A DNA stretch of 64,000 nucleotides. Source: Ginglymostoma cirratum (lineage: Eukaryota). This document shows, piece after piece, positions 3,373-64,000 of this stretch; within the stretch, counting starts at the first letter, position 1, and every line of letters starts with the position of its first letter. Location: the NCBI GenBank assembly GCA_024137785.1, contig JAHRHZ010000282.1, positions 1,087,201 to 1,151,200 on the forward strand, read 5' to 3'. A program made the translations under genes and the position numbers. A model generated the notes under the pieces. It was not told the origin of the DNA. It ran no database searches and saw only the letters and a program-made list of their open reading frames with translations.

Positions 3373-3397
3373 TTGGATAAAGAGGTTCAGAAGATTG

Positions 3398-3483
3398 AAG
3401 GGTCTAGGCCAGAAATGTCAGCCCTCCTGCTCCTATGATGCTGCTTGGCCTGCTGTGTTCATCCAGCTCTACACCTTGTTATC
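3398..3483 (+). mobile_element. Short Penelope-like pLTR fragment with hammerhead remnant, flanked by an 11-bp target-site duplication
   Basis: TCAGAAGATTG occurs at 3387-3397 and 3484-3494. The body AAGGGTCTAGGCCAGAAATGTC...TGCTGTGTTCATCCAGCTCTACACCTTGTTATC is nearly identical to the copy at 28112-28200. Confidence 0.75.
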
Positions 3484-4090: not shown

Positions 4091-4163
4091 GAAAAGTCTT
4101 ATGAATAATGTCCTATTCATGTAAATCACACATATCTGTTTACCCCGTTCTCATAACACTTAC

Positions 4164-4463
4164 ATGGCATTCCAGTGCTCTTGTCGGACCCGCTGTGTCG
4201 AACCTCACAGGATATTTGGTCACATTCCGCGTCTGACTCGATGAGGGCTAACTGGCTGCTCAGCGTGTAAGTTCCTTTCTTGTTTCTCACCGATGGGTAC
4301 GTCTGAACTCCAGTCGTGATCAGCTGCCCATGTTTCTTCCAGGTCACACTGGCGACGTCGGGGGAATAGTCCATCGCCAAGCAACCATAGATCACAGAAC
4401 CGTCAATGTTGCCTTGCTGACAGGAGGAGACTAAGCCATAAAGTGTCGGAGAAGACGGTGTTG
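4164..4463 (-). CDS. IGHM: IgM heavy-chain constant exon 1 (Cmu1)
   Basis: Acceptor TTTCTTTCCTAG|C at 4464/4463 and donor CCAT|GTAAGT at 4164/4163. The exon is 300 nt and open: (A)[99 protein letters not shown]. This is a typical shark mu CH1 ([21 protein letters not shown]). Confidence 0.96.
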
Positions 4464-4505
4464 CTAGGAAAGAAAGGTCGATTAAGCAAGTTAGTCTATG
4501 TTAGT

Positions 4506-10179: not shown

Positions 10180-10316
10180 TTTTTTAATGAAACAACAAAC
10201 TGTGAATGCTAGAAATCTGAAATAAATACACAAATTGCAGAAGAAACTCAGCAGGTCTGGCAGCTCCTTTTGGGAGAAAGCAAAGCTAACATTTCGATCC
10301 ACCGACCCCTCTTAAG
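10180..10316 (-). mobile_element. Decayed Penelope-like pLTR fragment with hammerhead remnant
   Basis: Shares the ctcagcaggtctggcagc core with 58850, 60757, 62211 and 63600. Minus strand reads CTTAAGA-GGGGTCGGTGGATC-GAAA-TGTT. Confidence 0.6.
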
Positions 10317-27714: not shown

Positions 27715-30188
27715 TAAGGCAAGGCGAATGACTAAGGTGGCAGTGGGGGGAACTCTTTGGTGCCAGCGACCATAATTCTATTAGTTTTAGAAGAGTGATG
27801 GAAAAGGATAGACCGGATTTAAAAGTTAAACTTCCAAATTGAAGGAAGGCCAATTTTGATGGCATTAGGCAAGAACTTTCAAAGGTTGATTTAGGGCGGA
27901 TGTTGCAGGAAGAGGAACAGCTGGAAAATGGGAAGCCTTTAAACTGAGATAACGAGAATCCAGAAGCAGTACGTTCTACCTACAGTCAACTGCAAGATGA
28001 TTACAGTTGTTTGTGATTGTCGGGAAAGATGGATGACGAGAGAAATTGTTGCATTGGTTCACAAAAAGAAGGAAGCATATGGCAGGTATAGACAGCAGAG
28101 GTCGAGTGAAGAGATAACAAGGTGTAGAGCTGGATGAACACAGCAGGCCAAGGATCATCAGAGGATCAGGAACGGTGACGTTTCGGGCCTAGACCCTTCT
28201 ACACCTTGTTATCTCAGATTCTTCAGCATCTGCAGTTCCTACTATCAGAGGTCAAGTGAAGCCTGTGGAAGAGTATAAAGGCAGTCTGAGAATACTTACG
28301 AGTGAAATCATAAGGACAAAAAAGGGGACATGAAATAACATTTGCTAGTAAGTTTACGGAGAATCCAAAGGGAATTAATAAATGCATCAAGCACAAAACT
28401 AGGGAGAGAATCGGGTCCCTCAAATATCAGCAAGGCAGCCTACATGTGGAACCGCGGGAAATGGGGGACACACTAAAAGAATATTTAGCACAAGTGTTTA
28501 CAACGGAGAAGTATATGCAAGGTTTGAGGAAATAATAGGATTTGAGGAAATAAATAGCAACGTCTTGAAAAATGTCCATATTACAGAGGAGGAGGTGCTG
28601 GATGGCTTTCAACGTATGTAGGTGAATAAATCCCCCTGCCTGGTCTGATGTAACTTTGAACTCTGTGGGAAGCGAGGGAAGTGATTGCTGTGTACCCTGT
28701 TGAGGTATTTGTATCATGAATGGCCACAGGTGTGGTGCAAGAAGACTGAATGTTGGCTCATGTGGTGCCACTATTTAAGAAAATGTAGTATAGAAAACCA
28801 GGGAACCGTTGACCCCTGAGGCTAACATCGATATTGGACAAGTTGTTGAAGGGATTCCTGAGGGATAGGTTTTACACATATTTGGAAAGGAAAAGACTGA
28901 TCATTCAAAGTCAACATGACTTTGTGCGTGGGAAATCGTGTCTCACTTACTTTATTGACGTTATTGAAGAAGCAACGAAGAGAAATAATGAGGGAAGAGT
29001 GGTGGAAATGATGTAGATGGATTTCAGTAAGATATTCGACAGGTTCGTCAAGGTAGACTGGTTAAAAATGGTAAATCGCACGGAATACAGCGTTAACTAG
29101 TCATATGGATACAGGACTAACTCGAAAGTAGAAGACAGAGGGTGTTTTTTTACACCAGAGGCCTCTGGCCAGCAGTGTGCGACAAGGATCTGTGCTACTT
29201 CCACTTTTTTAAAAATCATTTATAGAAATGATTTGAGTGTGAACAAAGGATGAATGGTTAGTCAGTTGGCAGACGACACCGAAATTGGAGTGGCAGTGGA
29301 CAGTGAAGAATGTTACGTCAGAATGCAATGGGATCTTGATCAGATGGGACTGTGGCCCGATGAGTGGCAAATAGAGTCTAATTTAGACAAATGTAAGGCG
29401 CTCCATTTTGGAACGGAAAATCAGGTCAGGACTAATGCACTCAATGGGAAGTTCCTGGGGATTGTTACTGAACAAATAGAACTTGAAGTGAAGGTTCATA
29501 TTTTCTTGAAAGTTGAGTTGCAGGTAGATAGTACTTTGAAGAAAATGTATGATTAGCTTTCTTTTATTGATCAGCGCATTGAGTTTTGGGAGTTGGGAGG
29601 TCGTGTTGCAGTTGTCCAGGTATTGGCTCGACTGTTTTCGGAATATTGTGAGCTTTTCTGGTCTCTCTGTTTTGGAAGGAAGTTGTGAAACTTGAAAAGA
29701 TTCAGAAACATTTCCAAAGATGTTGTCAGTTTTGAAGGGTTTGAACTACAGAGAGAGGCTGAACAGGTTGAGACTATTCTCCCTGGAGTTTTGGACGCTC
29801 AGGGGTGACATTATCGAAGTTCAAAAAATCATGAGGGTCATGGCTAGGATAAGTAGATAAGGTGTTTTCCCTCGCATAAGGGAGTTCGAAATTGGAGTGC
29901 ATGTGCTTAAGGTGAGAGGTTTAAGATTTAATCGGGACCTAAAGGGCAACTTTGTCTCGCAGAGGGTCTTGGCTGTCTGGAATAATGTGTCAGACGAACT
30001 GGTGGAGGCTGGCATAATCATCACATTTAGAAGGCATCTGGATGGGTAAGTGAATAGGAAGTGTTTAGAGGAATGTGTGCAAAATCCGGCAAATGAGATT
30101 CGATTTATCTCGGATATCTGGTCGGAATGGACGAGTTGGACGAAAGGGTCTGTTTCTGTGCTGTATATCGCTTTGACACAATGACTCT
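27715..30188 (+). mobile_element. Long decayed CR1/HER1-type LINE (end of endonuclease, RT, 3' UTR)
   Basis: SDHNSISF, QSQHDFVRGKSCLT, DFSK.FD, QLADDTEIG, WQIESNLDKCKALHFG. Many stops and frameshifts; tail ends ...tttgacacaatgactct. Confidence 0.9.
28112..28245. mobile_element. Penelope-like inverted plus direct pLTR fragment inserted in CR1 with a 16-bp TSD
   Basis: CAGAGGTCGAGTGAAG (28096-28111) and CAGAGGTCAAGTGAAG (28246-28261) flank it. Minus strand reads AGA-A-GGGT-CTAG-GCCC-GAAA-CG-TC. Confidence 0.8.
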
Positions 30189-36860: not shown

Positions 36861-37547
36861 AGATAATAGAGACTCCCGCGTCACGCAAGGCAACCACAAA
36901 GTAAAATCCTTGAAGCTAACGTGACAGATCGATAACGTCGTTAAGCATGCATTGTGATTACTTGATTAGCAATCAAAAGTCCTTCTGTAAAGTTCCAGAG
37001 CCAGGATTTCAATTTCTAACATGGTAGCTCAATTAATTAAAGGATTTGAAATGAAAATGCTGGCATAATGAACTTACCAAAGTTTCAGAGCACTGCGCAT
37101 GGTTCAGTATTGCCTTCAAGAGGAAGAAGCCTGTCCTTCCTGCCAGAACTAGCCTAACTGTTCAACAGAAATGAGCTTGTTCCTTACCTGCCGCTAACTT
37201 GACTAAGAAGCCCATTAAATTATGTGAAATATTCTTCAGAAATATAAACCATAATTCGTCGAGCCAAGTGGCAGCAATTCAAAAAGGTAGATGATGGTCA
37301 CAGTCTTATGGTGCATAACTAATTTGTTCATATTTCGATCAAGAGTTCAAAAATTAAAAAAGTGCATTGGAGTATGGAAATCTGAAACAAAAACAGATTA
37401 GAAACATTGGAAACACGCAGCAGATAAGTTAGGTTCTGCAGACAGACAGTCAGGTACATGTTTTAGATGGAGAATTGAATGCAAAGTCTCCTGAGATATT
37501 CTCCTAAACACAATTCTCCCCAGTATTACACTCCAATTCAAAGCTGA

Positions 37548-38738
37548 ATTTCCAGAAGGCATTTGACAAGGTGCCACAACAAAATCTGCTATATGAGATA
37601 AAGTTGCACGGTATTACAGGTAACGTATTGGCATGGATAGAGGATTGGTTGACCAGTAGAAAGCAAAGAGTAGGGGTAAATAGGTGTTTTTCTGATTGGC
37701 GGTCAGTGGCTAGTGGTGTGCCTCAGGGATCAGTGTTGGGACCAGAATTGTTTACAATTTACGCAGATAATTTGGAGTTGGAGCCTCAGGTGGTGTGTCA
37801 AAATTTGCAGATGACATCAAGGTGAGTGATAGAACCAAGTGTGCAGAAGACACTGAAATTCTGCAGAGGGATATAGATAGTCTAAGTGAGTGGGCAAAGG
37901 TCTGGCAGATGGAGTACAATGTTGATAAGTGTGAGGTAATCCATTTTGGTAGGAATAACAGCAAAATGGACAATGTTTTAAATGGTAAAAAAACGCAGCA
38001 CGCTGCTATGCAGAGGGACTTGGGTGTCCTTGGGTGTGCATGAATCGCTAAAAGTAGGATTTCGGGTGCAGCAGGTAATTAAAAAGGTAAAGGGAATTTG
38101 GTCTGCCATTGCTAGAGGGATGGAGTTTAAAAGCGGGGAGGCAATGCTGCAGTTGTATAGAATCCTGGTGAGGCTACACCTGGAGTACTGTGTGCAGTTT
38201 TGATCTCGTTACTTGTGAAGAGATATACTAGCACTGGAGGGGGTGCAGAGGACATTCACTCGGTTGATTCCAGAGTTGAGAGGGTTGGACTATGAGAAGA
38301 GACTGAGTAGGCTGGGGTTATACTGATTGGAATTCAGAAGAATGACGGGAGATCTTATAGAAACATATAAAATTATGAAGGGAATAGATAAGGTGGAGGC
38401 TGGGAGGTTGTTTCTGCGAGCAGGTGAAACTAGGACTAGAGGGCATCGCCTCAAAATAAAAGGAAGCAGATGTAGGACTGAGATCAGGAGAAACTTCTTC
38501 ACCCAAAGGGTTGTGGATCTATGGAATTCCCTGCCCAGTGAAGCGGTTGAAGCAACCTCGCTGAATATTTTAAGACAAGGCCAAATAAAGTTTTGAACAG
38601 TAAAGGAATTAAGGGTTATGGTGAGTGGGTGGGTAAGTGGAGCTGAGTCTCAAAAAGATCAGCCGTGATCTTATTAAATGGCGGGGTAGGCTCGAGGGGC
38701 CAGATGACCTACTCCTGCTCCTCGTTCTTATGTTCTTA
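37548..38738 (+). mobile_element. Relatively young 5'-truncated CR1 LINE (RT and 3' UTR)
   Basis: FQKAFDKVP, SGVPQGSVLGP, SKFADDIK, WQMEYNVDKCEVIHFG, RTRGH, FFTQRVV.LWNSLP; tail tcttatgttcttat. Confidence 0.92.
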
Positions 38739-44624: not shown

Positions 44625-47600
44625 CCCTCCTCATAACACAAATCTTCCACTGCTGCAACATCCTGATATTTTTTATTCAGAACTATCTCCAGCTTGATTA
44701 CATCCTTATTGTAAGAGGGCGAACAAAACTGGACGCAGTTCTCCAGAAGAGGACATGCCAACGTCCTGTAGATATTTAACACGTCTTCCCAACTCCCATA
44801 CTCAAAGGTGTGAGCAATGATGGCAAAAATAATAAACTTCTTCTGAACCACGCTGTCAAATCATGTTATGCAAACTTCAAAGGATTACTTACCTGACCCT
44901 TAGTTCTCTCTGTACTACAGCACTGCAGGAGTCCCTATCTTAAATTGTTATAGTCCTGTCCTTGTTTGTTTTCCCACAGTGCAAAACCGCACAGCTCTCG
45001 AAATTAAACCCCAGCTTTCAATCGTCAATCAATTGACCTGATCAATAAAGTTCTCTTTCTAATCTTAGATAGCCTTCTACACTGTCCAATACACCATCAA
45101 ATTCGATGTTATTCGCAAACTTACCAGAATTTTGATCTCAATTATTGATATAAATGACAAAAAAAGCGGACCCCGCACCACTCCTTTGGAACACCACTTG
45201 CAACAGACCTCCAGTCCGGAAAACAATCCTCCACGACTACACTTTGTCTCCTGCCATCAGGGAATTGTGTATCCAATTGGCAAGCTCACCCTGAATCCCA
45301 GATGAATCGATTTTGACAAATAGACTATTATGTGGAACCTTGTCAAAGGCTTTCCTAAAGTCCAAGTAAACAATGTCTACCTTTCTGCTAGTCATCAATT
45401 CCACTTTTTCCTTTGGTTACATCTTTGCAAAAAGCCTTGCTGAATCAGTCCTTCCCTTTCTTAATGCATGTAAATTCTGTCCCTCAGAAATCCCATCGAA
45501 CAAGTTTCCCACCATTGATGTCAGGCTCACGGTTCGATAGATCACTGACTTTTGCTTACAGTGTTGTTCAAGAATAGCACGAGGTTAGCCGCTGTACAGT
45601 CTATGGGCACCTCACCTGTGGCTATCAATGACAAAAGAGGGGCCCAGCTACCTCTTCCCCAATTTCCATTAAAGTTCTGTGGAGAACCTAGTCAGGTCCC
45701 GGTTACTTATCTCTCTTGTTGTGCTTTAAGACCTCCAACACCTCAAATCTTCTCAAGACATTATTATTTATTTCCCAAAGTTCCATTGTTTCCATGTCAC
45801 TCTCCAAAGCAAATACGGACGTTCAATATTCGTTCAGTATTTCACACATCTCTTGTGTTTCTACGTTGATATCTAAGGGCCCATATTCCCTCTCGAGTCA
45901 TTCTTTTTTGCCTTTAATTAATTATAGAATCACTTTAGACTCACTTTGAAACTTTTAGCGAAAGATGTCTCGTGTCCCTTTTGTGCCAGCCCGAGAGCCC
46001 TCTTAAGTATACTTCGACAGTCCTCATGCTGTTCTAGGGATACACTCGATCCCAGCTGTCTATATCTGGTATATGCCTTCTCTTTTTACTTTTGCAGAGC
46101 TTGAATTTTCCAGTCACCCAACATTCACTACACCGACCAATTTTGCCCTTTACACAAACAGGAACATACTGCATCTGAGCTCTCATTATGTCATTCTTAA
46201 AGTTCTCTCACTTCTGAACATTTTCTTTACTTGTGAATAGTTTCCGGGAATCAACTTTTCAAAGTTCCTGTCTAATACCTTCAAAATTAATTTCTAATTT
46301 AGAGCTTTAACTTTGTGATCTATCCTATCCTTTCCCGTAACTATTTTAAACCTAATAGATTTATGATCACTTCTCTCAAAGTGGTCCCCCAAAGAAAGGC
46401 AGTCACTTGTCCTGCCTTATTTCCCAGCAGAAGTTCAAGTAATGCTTCTTCTCAAGGATGTACATCTGCATATTGAATAAACATGTTTTTTGAACACAAA
46501 TAACAAATTCTTCCACATCCAAGCCCTTTGCATTATGACATTCCCATTCTATGTTTGTACATTTTAAATTCCCCACCATTATCCAATTTCTCTTACAAGA
46601 ATCTGAGATCCCAAGAGGGTTGGAATAGAAAAGCTGTGATGTGCTTCTGAGACTTCATAAAGCTCTAGTTAGGCCCCATTTAGAATACCGTGTCCAATTT
46701 TGGGCCCCACACCTCAGGAAGGACATACTGGCACTGGAGCGTGTCCAGCGGAGATTCACGCGGATGATCCCTGGAATGGTCGGCCGAACATACGATGAAC
46801 GGCTGATGATCCTGGGATTGTATTCATTAGAGTTTAGAAGGTTGAGGGGAGATCTAATAGAAACTTACAAGATAATGCATGGCTTAGAAAGGGTGGACTC
46901 TGGGATGTTGTTTCCGTTAGGTGGGGATACTAGGACCCGTGTGCACAGCCTTAGAATTCGAGGGGGTCAATTTAGAACAGAAATGAGGAGACATTTCTTC
47001 AGCCAGAGATTGGTGGGCCTGTGGAATTCATTGCCATGGAGTGCAGTAGAGGCCGGGACGTTGAATGTCTTCAAGGCAGAAATTGATAAATTCTTGATCT
47101 TGCACGGAATCAAGGGCTACGGGGAGATTTCGGGTAAGTGGAGTTGAAATCTCCATCAGCCATGATTAAATGGCGGAGTGGACTGGATGGGCCGAATGGC
47201 CTTACCTACACTCCTATGTCTTATGGTCTTATGGTCTATCCCGTCACATGTTTGTTTCTCAATTTCCCATTGATTATTGAGAGGCCTACAGTGCAGTACC
47301 AATAAGGTGTTGATCGCTTTCTTATTTTAAAGTTCCACCTACATAAATTCACTGTACGGTCGCCCAGGAGTATCTGCCCTATGTGTAGCCATAATGTTCA
47401 AACGAGATAGAAACACCCATTCCCCCTCTTCTCTTGCTTCCCCTTCTATATTTCGTATTGCATCCATAACCTGGAACATTAAGCTCCAAGCCCTGTCTAT
47501 TCCAGAGATACTTATTTTGTCGTAGCTACGATATTTCAGTCCCATGTTTCCAACCTTGCGCTAACTTCATCTGCCTTACCCGTCACGCCTCTTGCATTGA

Positions 47601-58849: not shown

Positions 58850-58966
58850 AAAACAAACAATATTTGAAACTAAAACGTCATTTGCTGGAGAGACTCAGCA
58901 GGTCGGGAAGTATCTGTGGCGAGAAAGCAGAGTTAATTTTTCCAATCAAATACCCTTCTTCAGAAC
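58850..58966 (-). mobile_element. Penelope-like pLTR fragment with hammerhead remnant
   Basis: Minus strand GTT-CTGAAGA-A-GGGTATTTGATTG-GAAA-AATT-AAC; family core ctcagcaggtc.gg.ag.atctgtgg. Confidence 0.6.
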
Positions 58967-59979
58967 AAAGTTATTTATGTTGCTCCATGTTAAAATACTG
59001 GGGGATTTTCTGTTGAATTAACATTGGTCTCAAACTCCCTCCCAGTAAATTACAATAGTCAACATCACAACTTTAGAAGCAGATCATCAGCTCTTACGCT
59101 TATCTGTTGTCTGAGGTGGTGAATGTCTTTGCTCATGATTTTCTTTTTTTCTTCTTTCTTTCTGTCAGTGAACACCCATGTCGTATGGAGATTTGGTCGT
59201 TACAGAGCCTACTTCACAATGTGTTTCGATCTGTGTCTCTTGGCCACTGCATCCACCTCACCCTCTGTCACTCTCTCTGTGCCTCCTTTCGCCCATCTCT
59301 CTCACTCCTTATTTATGTTCTTTGAAAAGTCTGAAATTAGGAAACAGATTCAGAGTGGAGCTGCTGAGAGGATCCTCACTCTACCTTTACTGAAGTGTCT
59401 AGAACTGGGCTCACAATCTCGGCATAATGTGTCTGTCATTTCGAACTGAGGTGAGGAGACATTTCTTCTCTCAAAGGACTGTGAACCTTTAGAATTCAAA
59501 ATAGAATTTCTCATCCATCACAGAAATAATTCCACCACAATTTTTTGATTTATATTAACGTTTTTACTGATGGTGTAAAATCAATGACTGGTCACAGCAA
59601 GAAAGTCGGTGAATAGGTTATCCTGTCTGTTATATGACCACAACACTTGCCGGTCACTTTGCAATTATCATCTCGTTATTCTTACCAAACTGGGAATGAA
59701 GGAGTGAAAATAAAGGAAGAGGAAATGCGAAATGAATGTGGAACAGAGAAAAGAAACTCCTGGCTGAATTATATTTTAAAGTTCACAAAACAGCAAGAAA
59801 CACCATTTCTTGACGGGGCTAAACCTGGCCGACAGGAGCGGGAGCACAGAATAAGTACAGCTTTATTTCAAACACTGGAATCACGTTCAGTCAATAGTTG
59901 GCTCGTTTTACATCAGTAAGTTGAATCAACGCATGGAAGTAATGAGAAATCTAAATGAGGGACAACTATTGAAACGTAC

Positions 59980-60756: not shown

Positions 60757-60851
60757 GACAAAAGCAGAAGTTGCTCAAAACGGTCAGCAGGTCTGGTAGC
60801 ATTTGAGAAGAAAAATCAAAGGAAACGTTTCGGATCTGGTGACACTCAGAA
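60757..60851 (-). mobile_element. Penelope-like pLTR fragment with a deletion in the hammerhead core
   Basis: Minus strand TT-CTGAG-TGTCACCAGATCC-GAAA-CG-TT. Confidence 0.6.
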
Positions 60852-62210: not shown

Positions 62211-62405
62211 AACCAAAAGAATTGTGTATGCTGTAAATCGGGAATAAAAACAAAAGTTGCTGCAGAAACTCGGCAGATCTGGCAGCACCTGTGAAGATAA
62301 AAACAGCGTTAACATTTCGCGTCCGCTGATTCTTGCCAGAAGTGATTTTTTTTCTTCACAGATGCTGCCAGGCCTGCTGAGGTTTTCCAGCAACTTCTGT
62401 TTTTG
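62211..62405. mobile_element. Penelope-like inverted pLTR pair
   Basis: 62245-62303 is the diverged reverse complement of 62345-62405; a decayed hammerhead remnant lies between the arms (62307-62341). Confidence 0.7.
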
Positions 62406-63434
62406 AAATGTTCGAAAGGTTTCGAGGGATACGGGTCGGGGCAGGTGAGACCGGTTCAGTTTGGAATTATGTTCGGTATGGATTGGTTGGACCGAAGTGT
62501 TTGTTTCCATGTTGTGTAACTGTATGAATCTATGGTACTAGACCATGAGGGAAGACAACAGGCAAGCTTGCATCTTTCCTTGATGACATAACATTTGACT
62601 TCGTTATCTCGAATTTATAGAATTTTGGAGATGAAAAGAGATTTAAATCTTCGCAAAAACTATCACGATCTCTTTTGGATTTTTATGTGGACTGAGAATG
62701 ATGATGATTCTGATGGTACTGAGGTCAATCTTGGAGCTGTCAGTGGACATTTTACAATTTATATGGTGTTCCGAGACACTGTCATTGTTAGGAGTACGTT
62801 GAGAAGAATTATGAGGAGGCTGAGGCTGGATCCACTGGGGCGCTGTAGTTAACTGGGTGAGGGGGAGAATAAGGCATTTCCTGCGTTATGATCGGACAGA
62901 GAAGAATGGAACCAAAAGACAGCAGCCGCACTCAGCATATTGACACTGGAGAGGTGTTGGTCAAATTACTAGCAGAATACCGTGGATGCTGGCGATCTGA
63001 AACAACCACAGCTAATTCGAGAGAAATTCAGCAGGTCTCATTGTATCTGCGGAGGGAAGAAGGGAGTTAACACTGAGTCCCAAGTGACATCAGAATTTGA
63101 ACATAATATTGTGACCAATTTTGGTAAAGGCTATAACAGCCTGATGAGCATGAGGTATGCTGGTTTACTTTTTTTCCGTCAAAGAAGATCTGATTGTAAT
63201 TTTGTTTGGGACTGCTTGGCTACTGTGGCAGGGACATAAACCTATTTGGAAGGATTCAATCACACTGAGTGTGTGTGAGACAAAGAATATATTTTAACGA
63301 AACAGTATTTATTTTCAAGCAGTTAGCTGCATGTTGCTGTCAATTTGCATAAAGCAAAACGAAAGAAATTTAACAGTAAAACATTTGAGAACCTTGGCTT
63401 TAATTAGCATATAACGACTTATTGAGGAGGAAGG

Positions 63435-63506
63435 TGTAATTTCTGACCACCTTGATTCTCGTTTCAAATTGTTGTAACTTCTGACCACCTTGATTCTCGT
63501 TTCAAA
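63435..63506. repeat. Tandem duplication, 38-bp period
   Basis: TGTAA(T/C)TTCTGACCACCTTGATTCTCGTTTCAAA at 63435 and 63473. Confidence 0.95.
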
Positions 63507-63599: not shown

Positions 63600-64000
63600 C
63601 TTACATAACAGATAAGCAAGTTACTGGAAAAGCTCAGCAGGTCTGGCAGCATCTGTGGAGGGAAAAAACTGAGTTAACTTTTCGGGTCCGGTGACCCTAC
63701 CTCAGAACTGAGGATGGCGAGGGAAACGTCAGTTTACATGCAGAAAATAGGGAGGTGGGTGGGGTAGGGAGTAAACGATAGGTTCGAGCACAAAGATAAA
63801 GAAAATTGTACAGACAAAGGAGTTGCTAACGATCAGGCCAGGAAAGTGAATAGTTGTTAATGGGGACTGTTAGGGACTAGAGAGAGAGGGTGTGTAATGG
63901 CAGGCGAAGTGGCAACAAGGCTTGGTGGGGTCGGGGGCTGGGACATGGGAGAGTTGATGCCCTAAAATGGTTGAACTCAATATTGAGTCCGGAGGACTGT
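63600..64000 (-). mobile_element. 3' end of a Penelope-like retroelement (ORF C-terminus and pLTR), cut by the window edge
   Basis: From 63999 the minus strand encodes QSSGLNIEFNHFRA, matching the GLN motif that ends PLE GIY-YIG endonuclease domains. A pyrimidine-rich UTR follows, then the same short repeat that is dispersed through the window. Confidence 0.75.
63672..63709 (-). ncRNA. Minimal type I hammerhead ribozyme fold (this copy mutated in the core)
   Basis: AGUU-CUGAGGU-A-GGGUC-ACCG-GACCC-GAAA-AG-UU-AACU: perfect stem I (4 bp) and stem II (5 bp). A9 is changed to U and the helix III palindrome ACGU to AAGU. Confidence 0.65.

Follow-up and report, generated by a model that had tools for sequence, protein, structure and literature searches.

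A decayed Penelope-like element with a hammerhead motif in Ginglymostoma cirratum, and what the ends of its many relatives may record

Positions 63618-64000 (minus strand) of a 64,000-nucleotide stretch of Ginglymostoma cirratum DNA, hereafter the window, are almost certainly the 3' end of a decayed Penelope-like element (PLE) that carries a minimal hammerhead motif in its pseudo-LTR (pLTR). The best overall explanation for this insertion and its relatives, which we judge fairly probable, is that the element's RNA would be fronted by the ribozyme, that short stubs would form when reverse transcriptase (RT) runs off the end of that RNA, and that a minority of templates would be cut. The element type is already known: minimal hammerheads of PLEs, their action as dimers, lone truncated copies and inverted pairs appear in the covered portions of earlier accounts (PMC4209133; review PMC6765202). 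The fresh part is a map of copy ends with clues to a start site and a cut site. A literature search that took in part of the supplements turned up no account of hammerheads in shark PLEs, or of copies that end at start or cut sites; the covered portions of PMC6155905 and PMC4350176 add nothing here.

Read along the minus strand, the window copy begins with the last codons of a broken PLE open reading frame (ORF), the C-terminus of a GIY-YIG domain at 63958..64000, placed by tblastn to the homologue P0041. An earlier note on this DNA had described a C-terminal peptide about 250 nt above the ribozyme, and the peptide, ending in SGLNIEFNHFRA, is indeed found at 63990-63958, 253 nt above the hammerhead core. 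The upstream pLTR, or 3' UTR, follows as a pyrimidine-rich segment at 63710..63957, delimited by genomic matches and by a direct repeat in locus L049. It contains the position of a TATA-like box of putative function (63733..63738), which reads TATAAA in family A, the family of this copy, has one base altered in the window copy and lies 29 nt above the predicted +1. The 5' strand of stem I (AGUU, 63706..63709) opens with an A in initiator-like context, at which transcription is predicted to start and which falls inside the peak of 5' ends described below. The minimal core with stem II occupies 63676..63705, with a predicted cut between 63676 and 63675, and the 3' strand of stem I (AACU) was assigned by motif reading to 63672..63675. 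A downstream pLTR segment (63618..63671) completes the copy, whose 3' end is about +87 from position C3, near the family end site at about +95. A 33-bp direct duplication (63441-63504) adjoins that end. In a search for a target-site duplication, the longest word common to both flanks was 7 bp and lay away from the ends. The upstream pLTR is 85-88% identical to its 39 best other genomic matches, which indicates that family A is old.

The PLE origin proposed in the earlier note was borne out when the contig was extended past 64000, where the element continues for 1.18 kb and then meets an inverted 360-bp copy of its own pLTR end. The remnant comprises the C-terminal half of the RT, a C-x5-CxxC linker and a GIY-YIG domain, all broken by frameshifts, and it matches P0041 at 44% over residues 404-724 and 37% over 730-800 (tblastn). 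The inverted pLTR part has an intact hammerhead core, which lies about 1.4 kb beyond the end of the window. Farther on, about 2.9-5 kb past the window end (L031:3630-5683), is another family-A insertion, older and 75-80% identical to the first; it is an inverted pair with an RT/endonuclease remnant, and beside it is a short run of telomere-like TAACCC repeats (L031:6065-6090).

RT and GIY-YIG sequences are likewise found in L049, a near full-length relative with the layout pLTR-ORF-pLTR and the pLTR as a direct repeat at both ends; pLTR-ORF junctions were also found among 29 other loci. Pfam matched L049 to RVT_1 at E 3.7e-5, below Pfam's cut-off, and to GIY-YIG at E 0.02. GIY-YIG was above the cut-off in P0041, and nine of the ten element fragments in one set, together with L045, had no Pfam match. 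PLE homologues carry PF00078 and PF26215, some of them also PF01541, and the closest named protein homologues come from sharks and rays. PLE RT sequence also occurs in a skate protein (P0108) whose annotation is that of a nicotinamide riboside kinase isoform, which probably reflects a gene-model artefact or exonisation. The family A endonuclease shows the motifs YCIRCSQC..YIGET..EH..HF of a GIY-YIG domain with CCHH, and in families A and B alike a CX2-5CxxC linker of the CNRRRCNTC type separates RT from endonuclease. Two further PLE hallmarks are the inverted 5'-truncated copy, seen in the window-end insertion, and an optional tail of 30-40 bp, seen in bimodal 3' ends. The same architecture is described, in the sections covered, for endonuclease-bearing Neptune elements (Craig et al. 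2021, PMC8557442): a single ORF with RT and then GIY-YIG, the CX2-5CxxC linker, CCHH, pLTRs, an inverted 5'-truncated copy and a 30-40 bp tail. Since the linker marks Neptune or Nematis (PMC8557442) and vertebrate PLEs are Neptune or Poseidon in the part covered of one survey (bioRxiv 10.64898/2026.07.22.740005), Neptune is the likely clade of the window copy, an assignment made by linker rather than by tree, and by a linker that Nematis shares.

The hammerhead motif folds as the earlier note had described, with every part in place. It consists of AGUU (63709-63706), CUGAGGU (63705-63699), an extra A (63698), stem II as GGGUC-ACCG-GACCC (63697-63684), GAAA (63683-63680) and a further A, the triplet GUU (63678-63676) and AACU (63675-63672). 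The core of this copy is not intact, its positions 9 and 15.2 being U and A instead of the family's A and C. Its hammerhead is predicted from sequence not to cut, and the single copy is a dead relic. Among the matches listed, A at 15.2 occurs in three of 100 family copies and U9 in none, on which count U9 was rejected as a propagated ribozyme variant and could mark at most a small lineage; among loci picked for likeness to the window copy, U9 occupies five of 46 rows, two of them the window copy itself.

The family majority, CUGAGGA-A-stem II-GAAACGUU, is intact, and it is here that the minimal hammerhead with CUGANGA and GAAA boxes claimed for the element is found. The family motif has the extra base after position 9, the G10.1-C11.1 pair, the palindromic 15.2-16.2 and the NUH triplet expected of minimal hammerheads. 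In these respects, and in its short helix I and want of a helix III, it resembles the motifs with CUGANGA/GAAA boxes and an extra base 9/10.1 reported from metazoan PLE pLTRs, which also occur mostly as lone truncated copies with inverted pairs nearby (Cervera and De la Pena 2014, PMC4209133, portion covered). It differs in a helix II of 4-5 bp, and copy ends are mapped here but not in that account, the covered portion of which, with one searchable supplement table, does not name sharks. An Rfam scan of the window returned no hammerhead match at E<=5 and six weak matches; the weak miRNA matches in the scan are accounted for by the hairpin of an inverted pair at 22400-22530. In folding predictions stem II is reliable, while the monomer shows practically no pairing of stem I. 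When two family-A molecules are cofolded, the AACGUU palindrome pairs between them over six bases rather than the wanted four, taking in A14 and U17.

Covariation of stem II between copies, which the earlier note had claimed, proved weak. Inside each family (132 A and 133 B copies) double changes are not in excess, the two paired doubles per family being at chance level, and the only differences in stem II from one family to the other are U-G against U-A, an additional pair and the loop. What had been taken for three paired versions of the stem are really two family types and a single-copy variant, GGAU/AUCC, present in one of 133 family-B copies with 0.2 expected by chance. In a set of 15 hand-picked sequences, one metagenome PLE included, 87.5% of cells were paired and the structure scored better than slid controls; in the same set double changes fell at three of eight helix pairs, and 125 of 500 shuffles scored as high. 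A switch in which upstream DNA would act as an anti-ribozyme was rejected, being no better than 200 shuffles in any of four copies.

Clustering of 186 of 193 copies, those with a readable core, separated family A from family B, the latter with several subtypes. The family A consensus reads AGUU, CUGAGGA, A, GGGUC-ACCG-GACCC, GAAAC, GUU and AACU; that of family B reads AUUU, CUGAWGA, A, a 4-bp stem II, GAAAC and GUC, with a stem I of 2-4 bp. A PLE ORF precedes the family B motif in at least 22 cases, some of them duplicated, and many unbroken frames of 700-1,050 residues came up when a shark homologue was used as query. Both of the loci fetched from among these (L378 and L379) have RT motifs (KPADKG, MDV.SLY, YIDD), the linker and GIY-YIG, and the readable one ends in the B2 motif. 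Their unbroken ORFs of about 1,037 codons suggest that family B is young, and it may possibly still be mobile. Clustering and genome counts thus agree with the earlier claim of at least two abundant ribozyme-bearing PLE subfamilies.

A profile built from 171 natural motif-plus-tail seeds was run on the window, with the reversed sequence as control. It gave 11 matches, covering all eight places named in the earlier note, and none in reversed DNA, so that the seven other repeats reported there are all real. Two of the matches are inverted partners and one is an additional old family-A-like stub at 63021..63087 (minus strand, E 5.5e-5). As had been noted, none of the window matches has a fully intact core. 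The suggestion that the window-end element represents the source type holds for the repeats near 10180, 58850, 60757 and 62211, which are of family A, and fails for those near 3398, 22375 and 28112, which belong to family B with its own PLE ORF. Among the former, the stub at 62253..62396 is an inverted, head-to-head pair with a decayed core, that at 60768..60850 (minus strand) has lost the first core half, and a family-A-type stub at 58880..58969 (minus strand) begins 3 nt above C3 and has a decayed second core half. Among the latter, the stub at 28123..28200 (minus strand) keeps an intact stem II and GAAACGUC and has no CUG, and the inverted pair at 22387..22548 forms a hairpin with G12 changed.

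The two remaining stubs lie in an immunoglobulin (Ig) heavy-chain locus. A V frame (15986-16363) and two C1-set exons (4126-4500 and 84-512) were found on the minus strand, which makes the copies near 3398 and 10180 intronic. The first, of family B, occupies 3396..3473 on the plus strand in the intron that separates the constant exons, and is antisense to Ig transcription; the second, a decayed family-A-type stub, occupies 10232..10316 on the minus strand in the V-to-C intron, in the sense direction. The claim that two copies sit in IgM introns is therefore sound as to introns of a heavy-chain locus, the isotype being presumably IgM. The V segment and the two exons belong to one cluster, and the V looks unrearranged, since an RSS-like sequence stands at the end of its frame. 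The presence of two copies inside Ig introns might suggest that they act on the neighbouring gene, but one of them is antisense, the cores of both are broken and the window density (11 matches in 64 kb) is not above that of a random sample (160 matches in 571 kb), which leaves such an action extremely improbable. Decayed LINE RT fragments, presumably of CR1/L2 type, also occur in the window (37508-38596, 46629-47147 and others).

In the 4.36-Gb genome searched, an exact intact-core pattern gave 90,473 matches and its reversed control none. The random sample consisted of 100 round-number 10-kb stretches, 59 of them with DNA (571,045 bases), in which the 160 profile matches correspond to 280 per Mb. 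Since the exact pattern has 1.9 times its genome-wide density in this sample, the total extrapolates to roughly 0.6-1.2 million fragments. Published counts of minimal hammerheads, obtained with a different descriptor, are about 9,000 for Xenopus and about 4,000 for coelacanth (PMC4209133, portion covered), against about 90,000 exact intact cores here.

The copies end at preferred places. For end mapping, 261 of 283 matches from random, tail-selected and window loci were aligned to long natural copies, and offsets were counted from C3. The 5' ends of 48 of 100 family A and 46 of 134 family B copies fall at -6..-1, the first bases of stem I, where their density is about 8 per nt compared with 0.2 or less upstream; three A and 27 B copies span the entire 250-nt upstream reference. 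In both families the 3' ends are bimodal, at about +95 and about +125-138, roughly 35 nt apart, the second site of family B being bounded by reference lengths. Upstream DNA was unique in 30 and an inverted self-copy in 23 of the 53 family-A copies that end at -12..+4, in a classification whose A and B lists overlap in part. In contigs from public runs, 8 of the 15 joints listed are inversion joints at -2..-6, and loose ends lie at -3, +94/95 and +124; these runs amount to 16 rows of contigs, in which RNA ends are not visible, and their RNA status is mostly guessed. A recurrent fold-back joint was seen in most of 20 loci (L309-L327), in which the inverted arm runs as far as -3 and is joined, through 2-3 bases of microhomology, to a forward arm that picks up at +13.

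Fixed ends, a very high number and a frequent inverted-repeat shape are also what one would see if the stubs formed a separate family, of SINE, MITE or retrozyme type, propagated by master elements of its own. Such a family is very unlikely, as the stubs correspond base by base to the pLTRs of complete PLEs and are without the upstream TATA-like box, the fold-back joints are heterogeneous and the stubs are not tandem arrays. Non-LTR retrozymes, which are hammerhead-bearing, non-coding derivatives of PLE pLTRs found in one chondrichthyan, provide the nearest comparison; they form tandem units in the portion of the survey covered (bioRxiv 10.64898/2026.07.22.740005), unlike the shark copies, which are dispersed singles or inverted pairs. 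Retrozyme tandem units were rejected for family A, because upstream DNA is unique or inverted in all 53 stubs. At one place (G000:C22:6900904-6901097) four tandem 54-bp units contain a partial family-A motif without the first core box, a retrozyme-like micro-array.

The position of the 5' peak may be that of an RNA start. Among copies with native upstream DNA, a TATA-like box stands at -33 in 23 of 32 A copies and at -35 in 15 of 18 B1 copies, that is 29-31 nt above the initiator-like A with which stem I begins; the upstream sequences of A and B1 are unrelated despite this similar spacing. We lean towards the reading that transcription would start at stem I from the pLTR's TATA-like box, making the ribozyme the front of the mRNA, and that internally primed RT would run off at the capped 5' end. 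A promoter inside the pLTR has precedents in rotifer Pen2a, where a putative TATA plus initiator was noted (PMC3846280), and in Drosophila Penelope, whose internal promoter is TATA-less and whose ribozyme follows an intron (PMC2377424), unlike shark families A and B1; the covered parts of these accounts do not link copy ends to the start site. A PLE on a metagenome contig (L301:1550-1650, 80% to P0041) has the same motif layout, with TATAAA 36 nt above C3, and the bases after its cut site are identical to those of shark family B; it was the one locus with a recognisable motif among eight in the metagenome scan.

A capped template would be expected to leave a trace at the junction, as an extra G marks capped full-length L1 insertions in the part covered of one report (PMC11702581). 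In copies starting at the stem I A, counted where a non-template base precedes it, two counts, each over the first 100 matches listed, gave 47 and 53 with G at the junction, with 26% expected. At unique-flank loci (60 fetched) the fraction is 18/35 overall (p 0.001); family B contributes 11/17 (p 0.001) and family A 7/18, which is not significant (p 0.16), and pooled over other offsets there is no excess (4/29 A, 8/26 B). The control with internal truncations was swamped by fold-backs in family A; in family B it gave G 5 and A 15 of 100 (Fisher p 0.006 versus the start site), a comparison confounded by the other subfamily's base.

Alternatively, the 5' peak could reflect stalling or template switching of RT at an RNA structure, either the ribozyme or an upstream hairpin, rather than an RNA start. 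Upstream DNA can fold onto stem I or the core in both main families, about half of the stubs are fold-backs and self-priming at a palindrome has been proposed for rotifer PLEs (PMC3846280, portion covered). However, the upstream pairing is no more stable than in shuffles (fraction as low 0.49-0.68), stem II is the one stable helix and the peak falls on its far side, at an offset that is equal in families with unrelated upstream sequence; the TATA spacing and the G excess would also be left unaccounted for. Stalling is thus unlikely as the source of the peak, though compatible with parts of the reading in which transcription starts at stem I.

Evidence for cleavage was sought at the predicted cut. 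In the small end-mapping sample, ends near it number none of 100 in family A and six of 134 in family B. Starts were then counted genome-wide, two non-template bases being required. Subtypes B2/B3 gave 48, 240, 966, 315 and 360 raw starts at +26, +27, +28 (the cut), +30 and +31, or 192, 428, 1,723, 633 and 642 when corrected for filter strength; the count at +27 is mostly spill from +28, and that at +28 comes to about 1,400-1,500 after spill from an assumed +29. Thirty B2/B3 loci starting at +28 comprise 11 that join unique DNA, 11 inverted, three not truncated and five unreadable, and part of the +28 count could stem from A-rich flanks or from fold-back at a palindrome that starts there in one subfamily. 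Family A, with its GUU triplet, has no step at its cut site (corrected counts of 100, 108 and 70 at +28, +30 (the cut) and +33). As a hammerhead triplet, GUU cuts worse than GUC. There may be about an even chance that in the GUC family a minority of templates are RNAs cut by a ribozyme acting slowly in vivo, as a dimer or aided by protein, and losing the capped first 32-34 nt.

The motif might instead be kept as a promoter or protein-binding element that no longer cuts, the +28 step being a joining artefact. The conserved AACGU lies about +27 to +33 from the predicted start, the position of a downstream promoter element, and Penelope has a downstream element RGACGTGY (PMC2377424, portion covered). 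The absence of a step in family A, the mere 2-4 bp of stem I in family B and the unimpaired insertion of hammerhead mutants in vitro (PMC11167929, portion covered) point the same way. On the other hand, the core, the extra base, the G10.1-C11.1 pair, the NUH triplet and the first pair of stem I are kept across the families and in a distant relative, and starts jump at the cut site and are scarce just upstream. A purely non-cutting role is therefore somewhat unlikely, and it too could coexist with parts of the reading that includes slow cutting.

A branch-point-like sequence covers the cut site in the window (63645-63678, minus strand) and at the family A pLTR-ORF junction, where it precedes a pyrimidine tract and CAG-ATG. 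In family A another acceptor-like site stands ahead of the main ATG, and an upstream ORF of 30 codons lies between the acceptor-like sites. An intron ending at the branch-point-like sequence is unsupported by the joints listed: the 15 given for each of two contig sets, which have 354 and 206 further joints, include no GT-AG joint.

In the proposed mechanism, the element RT would start from either of two internal priming sites, which would lie about 95 and 130 nt downstream, and run off the capped 5' end to give stubs of 100-135 bp, about half of them folded back as inverted pairs. Longer copies such as the window copy would derive from the downstream pLTR. Uncut RNA would be the main template, from which it follows that cleavage would not be needed for copying, and in the young GUC-triplet family a minority of templates would be ribozyme-cut RNAs. 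The anole Poseidon element PAc (Frangieh et al. 2024, PMC11167929, portion covered) offers parallels: two internal RT start sites, shown in vitro, give its tail and match the two 3'-end sites of the shark copies, and its hammerhead is dispensable for insertion, as we infer for copying of the shark PLE. PAc differs in that its ORF starts within the ribozyme, whereas the main ATG of family A is about 165 nt below C3, and the reads reported for it have no ends at the cut site.

In PLEs the hammerhead cuts weakly in vitro and is dispensable for insertion, and anole reads are without cut ends. The shark copies could amount to a million-copy fossil record of PLE RNA ends, in which the hammerhead would make up the opening 35 nt of an mRNA that is capped and driven by a TATA box, the stubs would be cDNAs akin to strong-stop products and the step in the GUC family, absent from the GUU family, would reflect cutting and decapping in vivo; we put this forward tentatively, a little short of even chances. 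Its intact motifs number about 90,000, its copy ends are sharp and one of its families is young and retains unbroken ORFs, so that the genome provides exact coordinates for the candidate start and cut sites. The built-in contrast between GUC with a step and GUU without one makes the role of the hammerhead directly testable.
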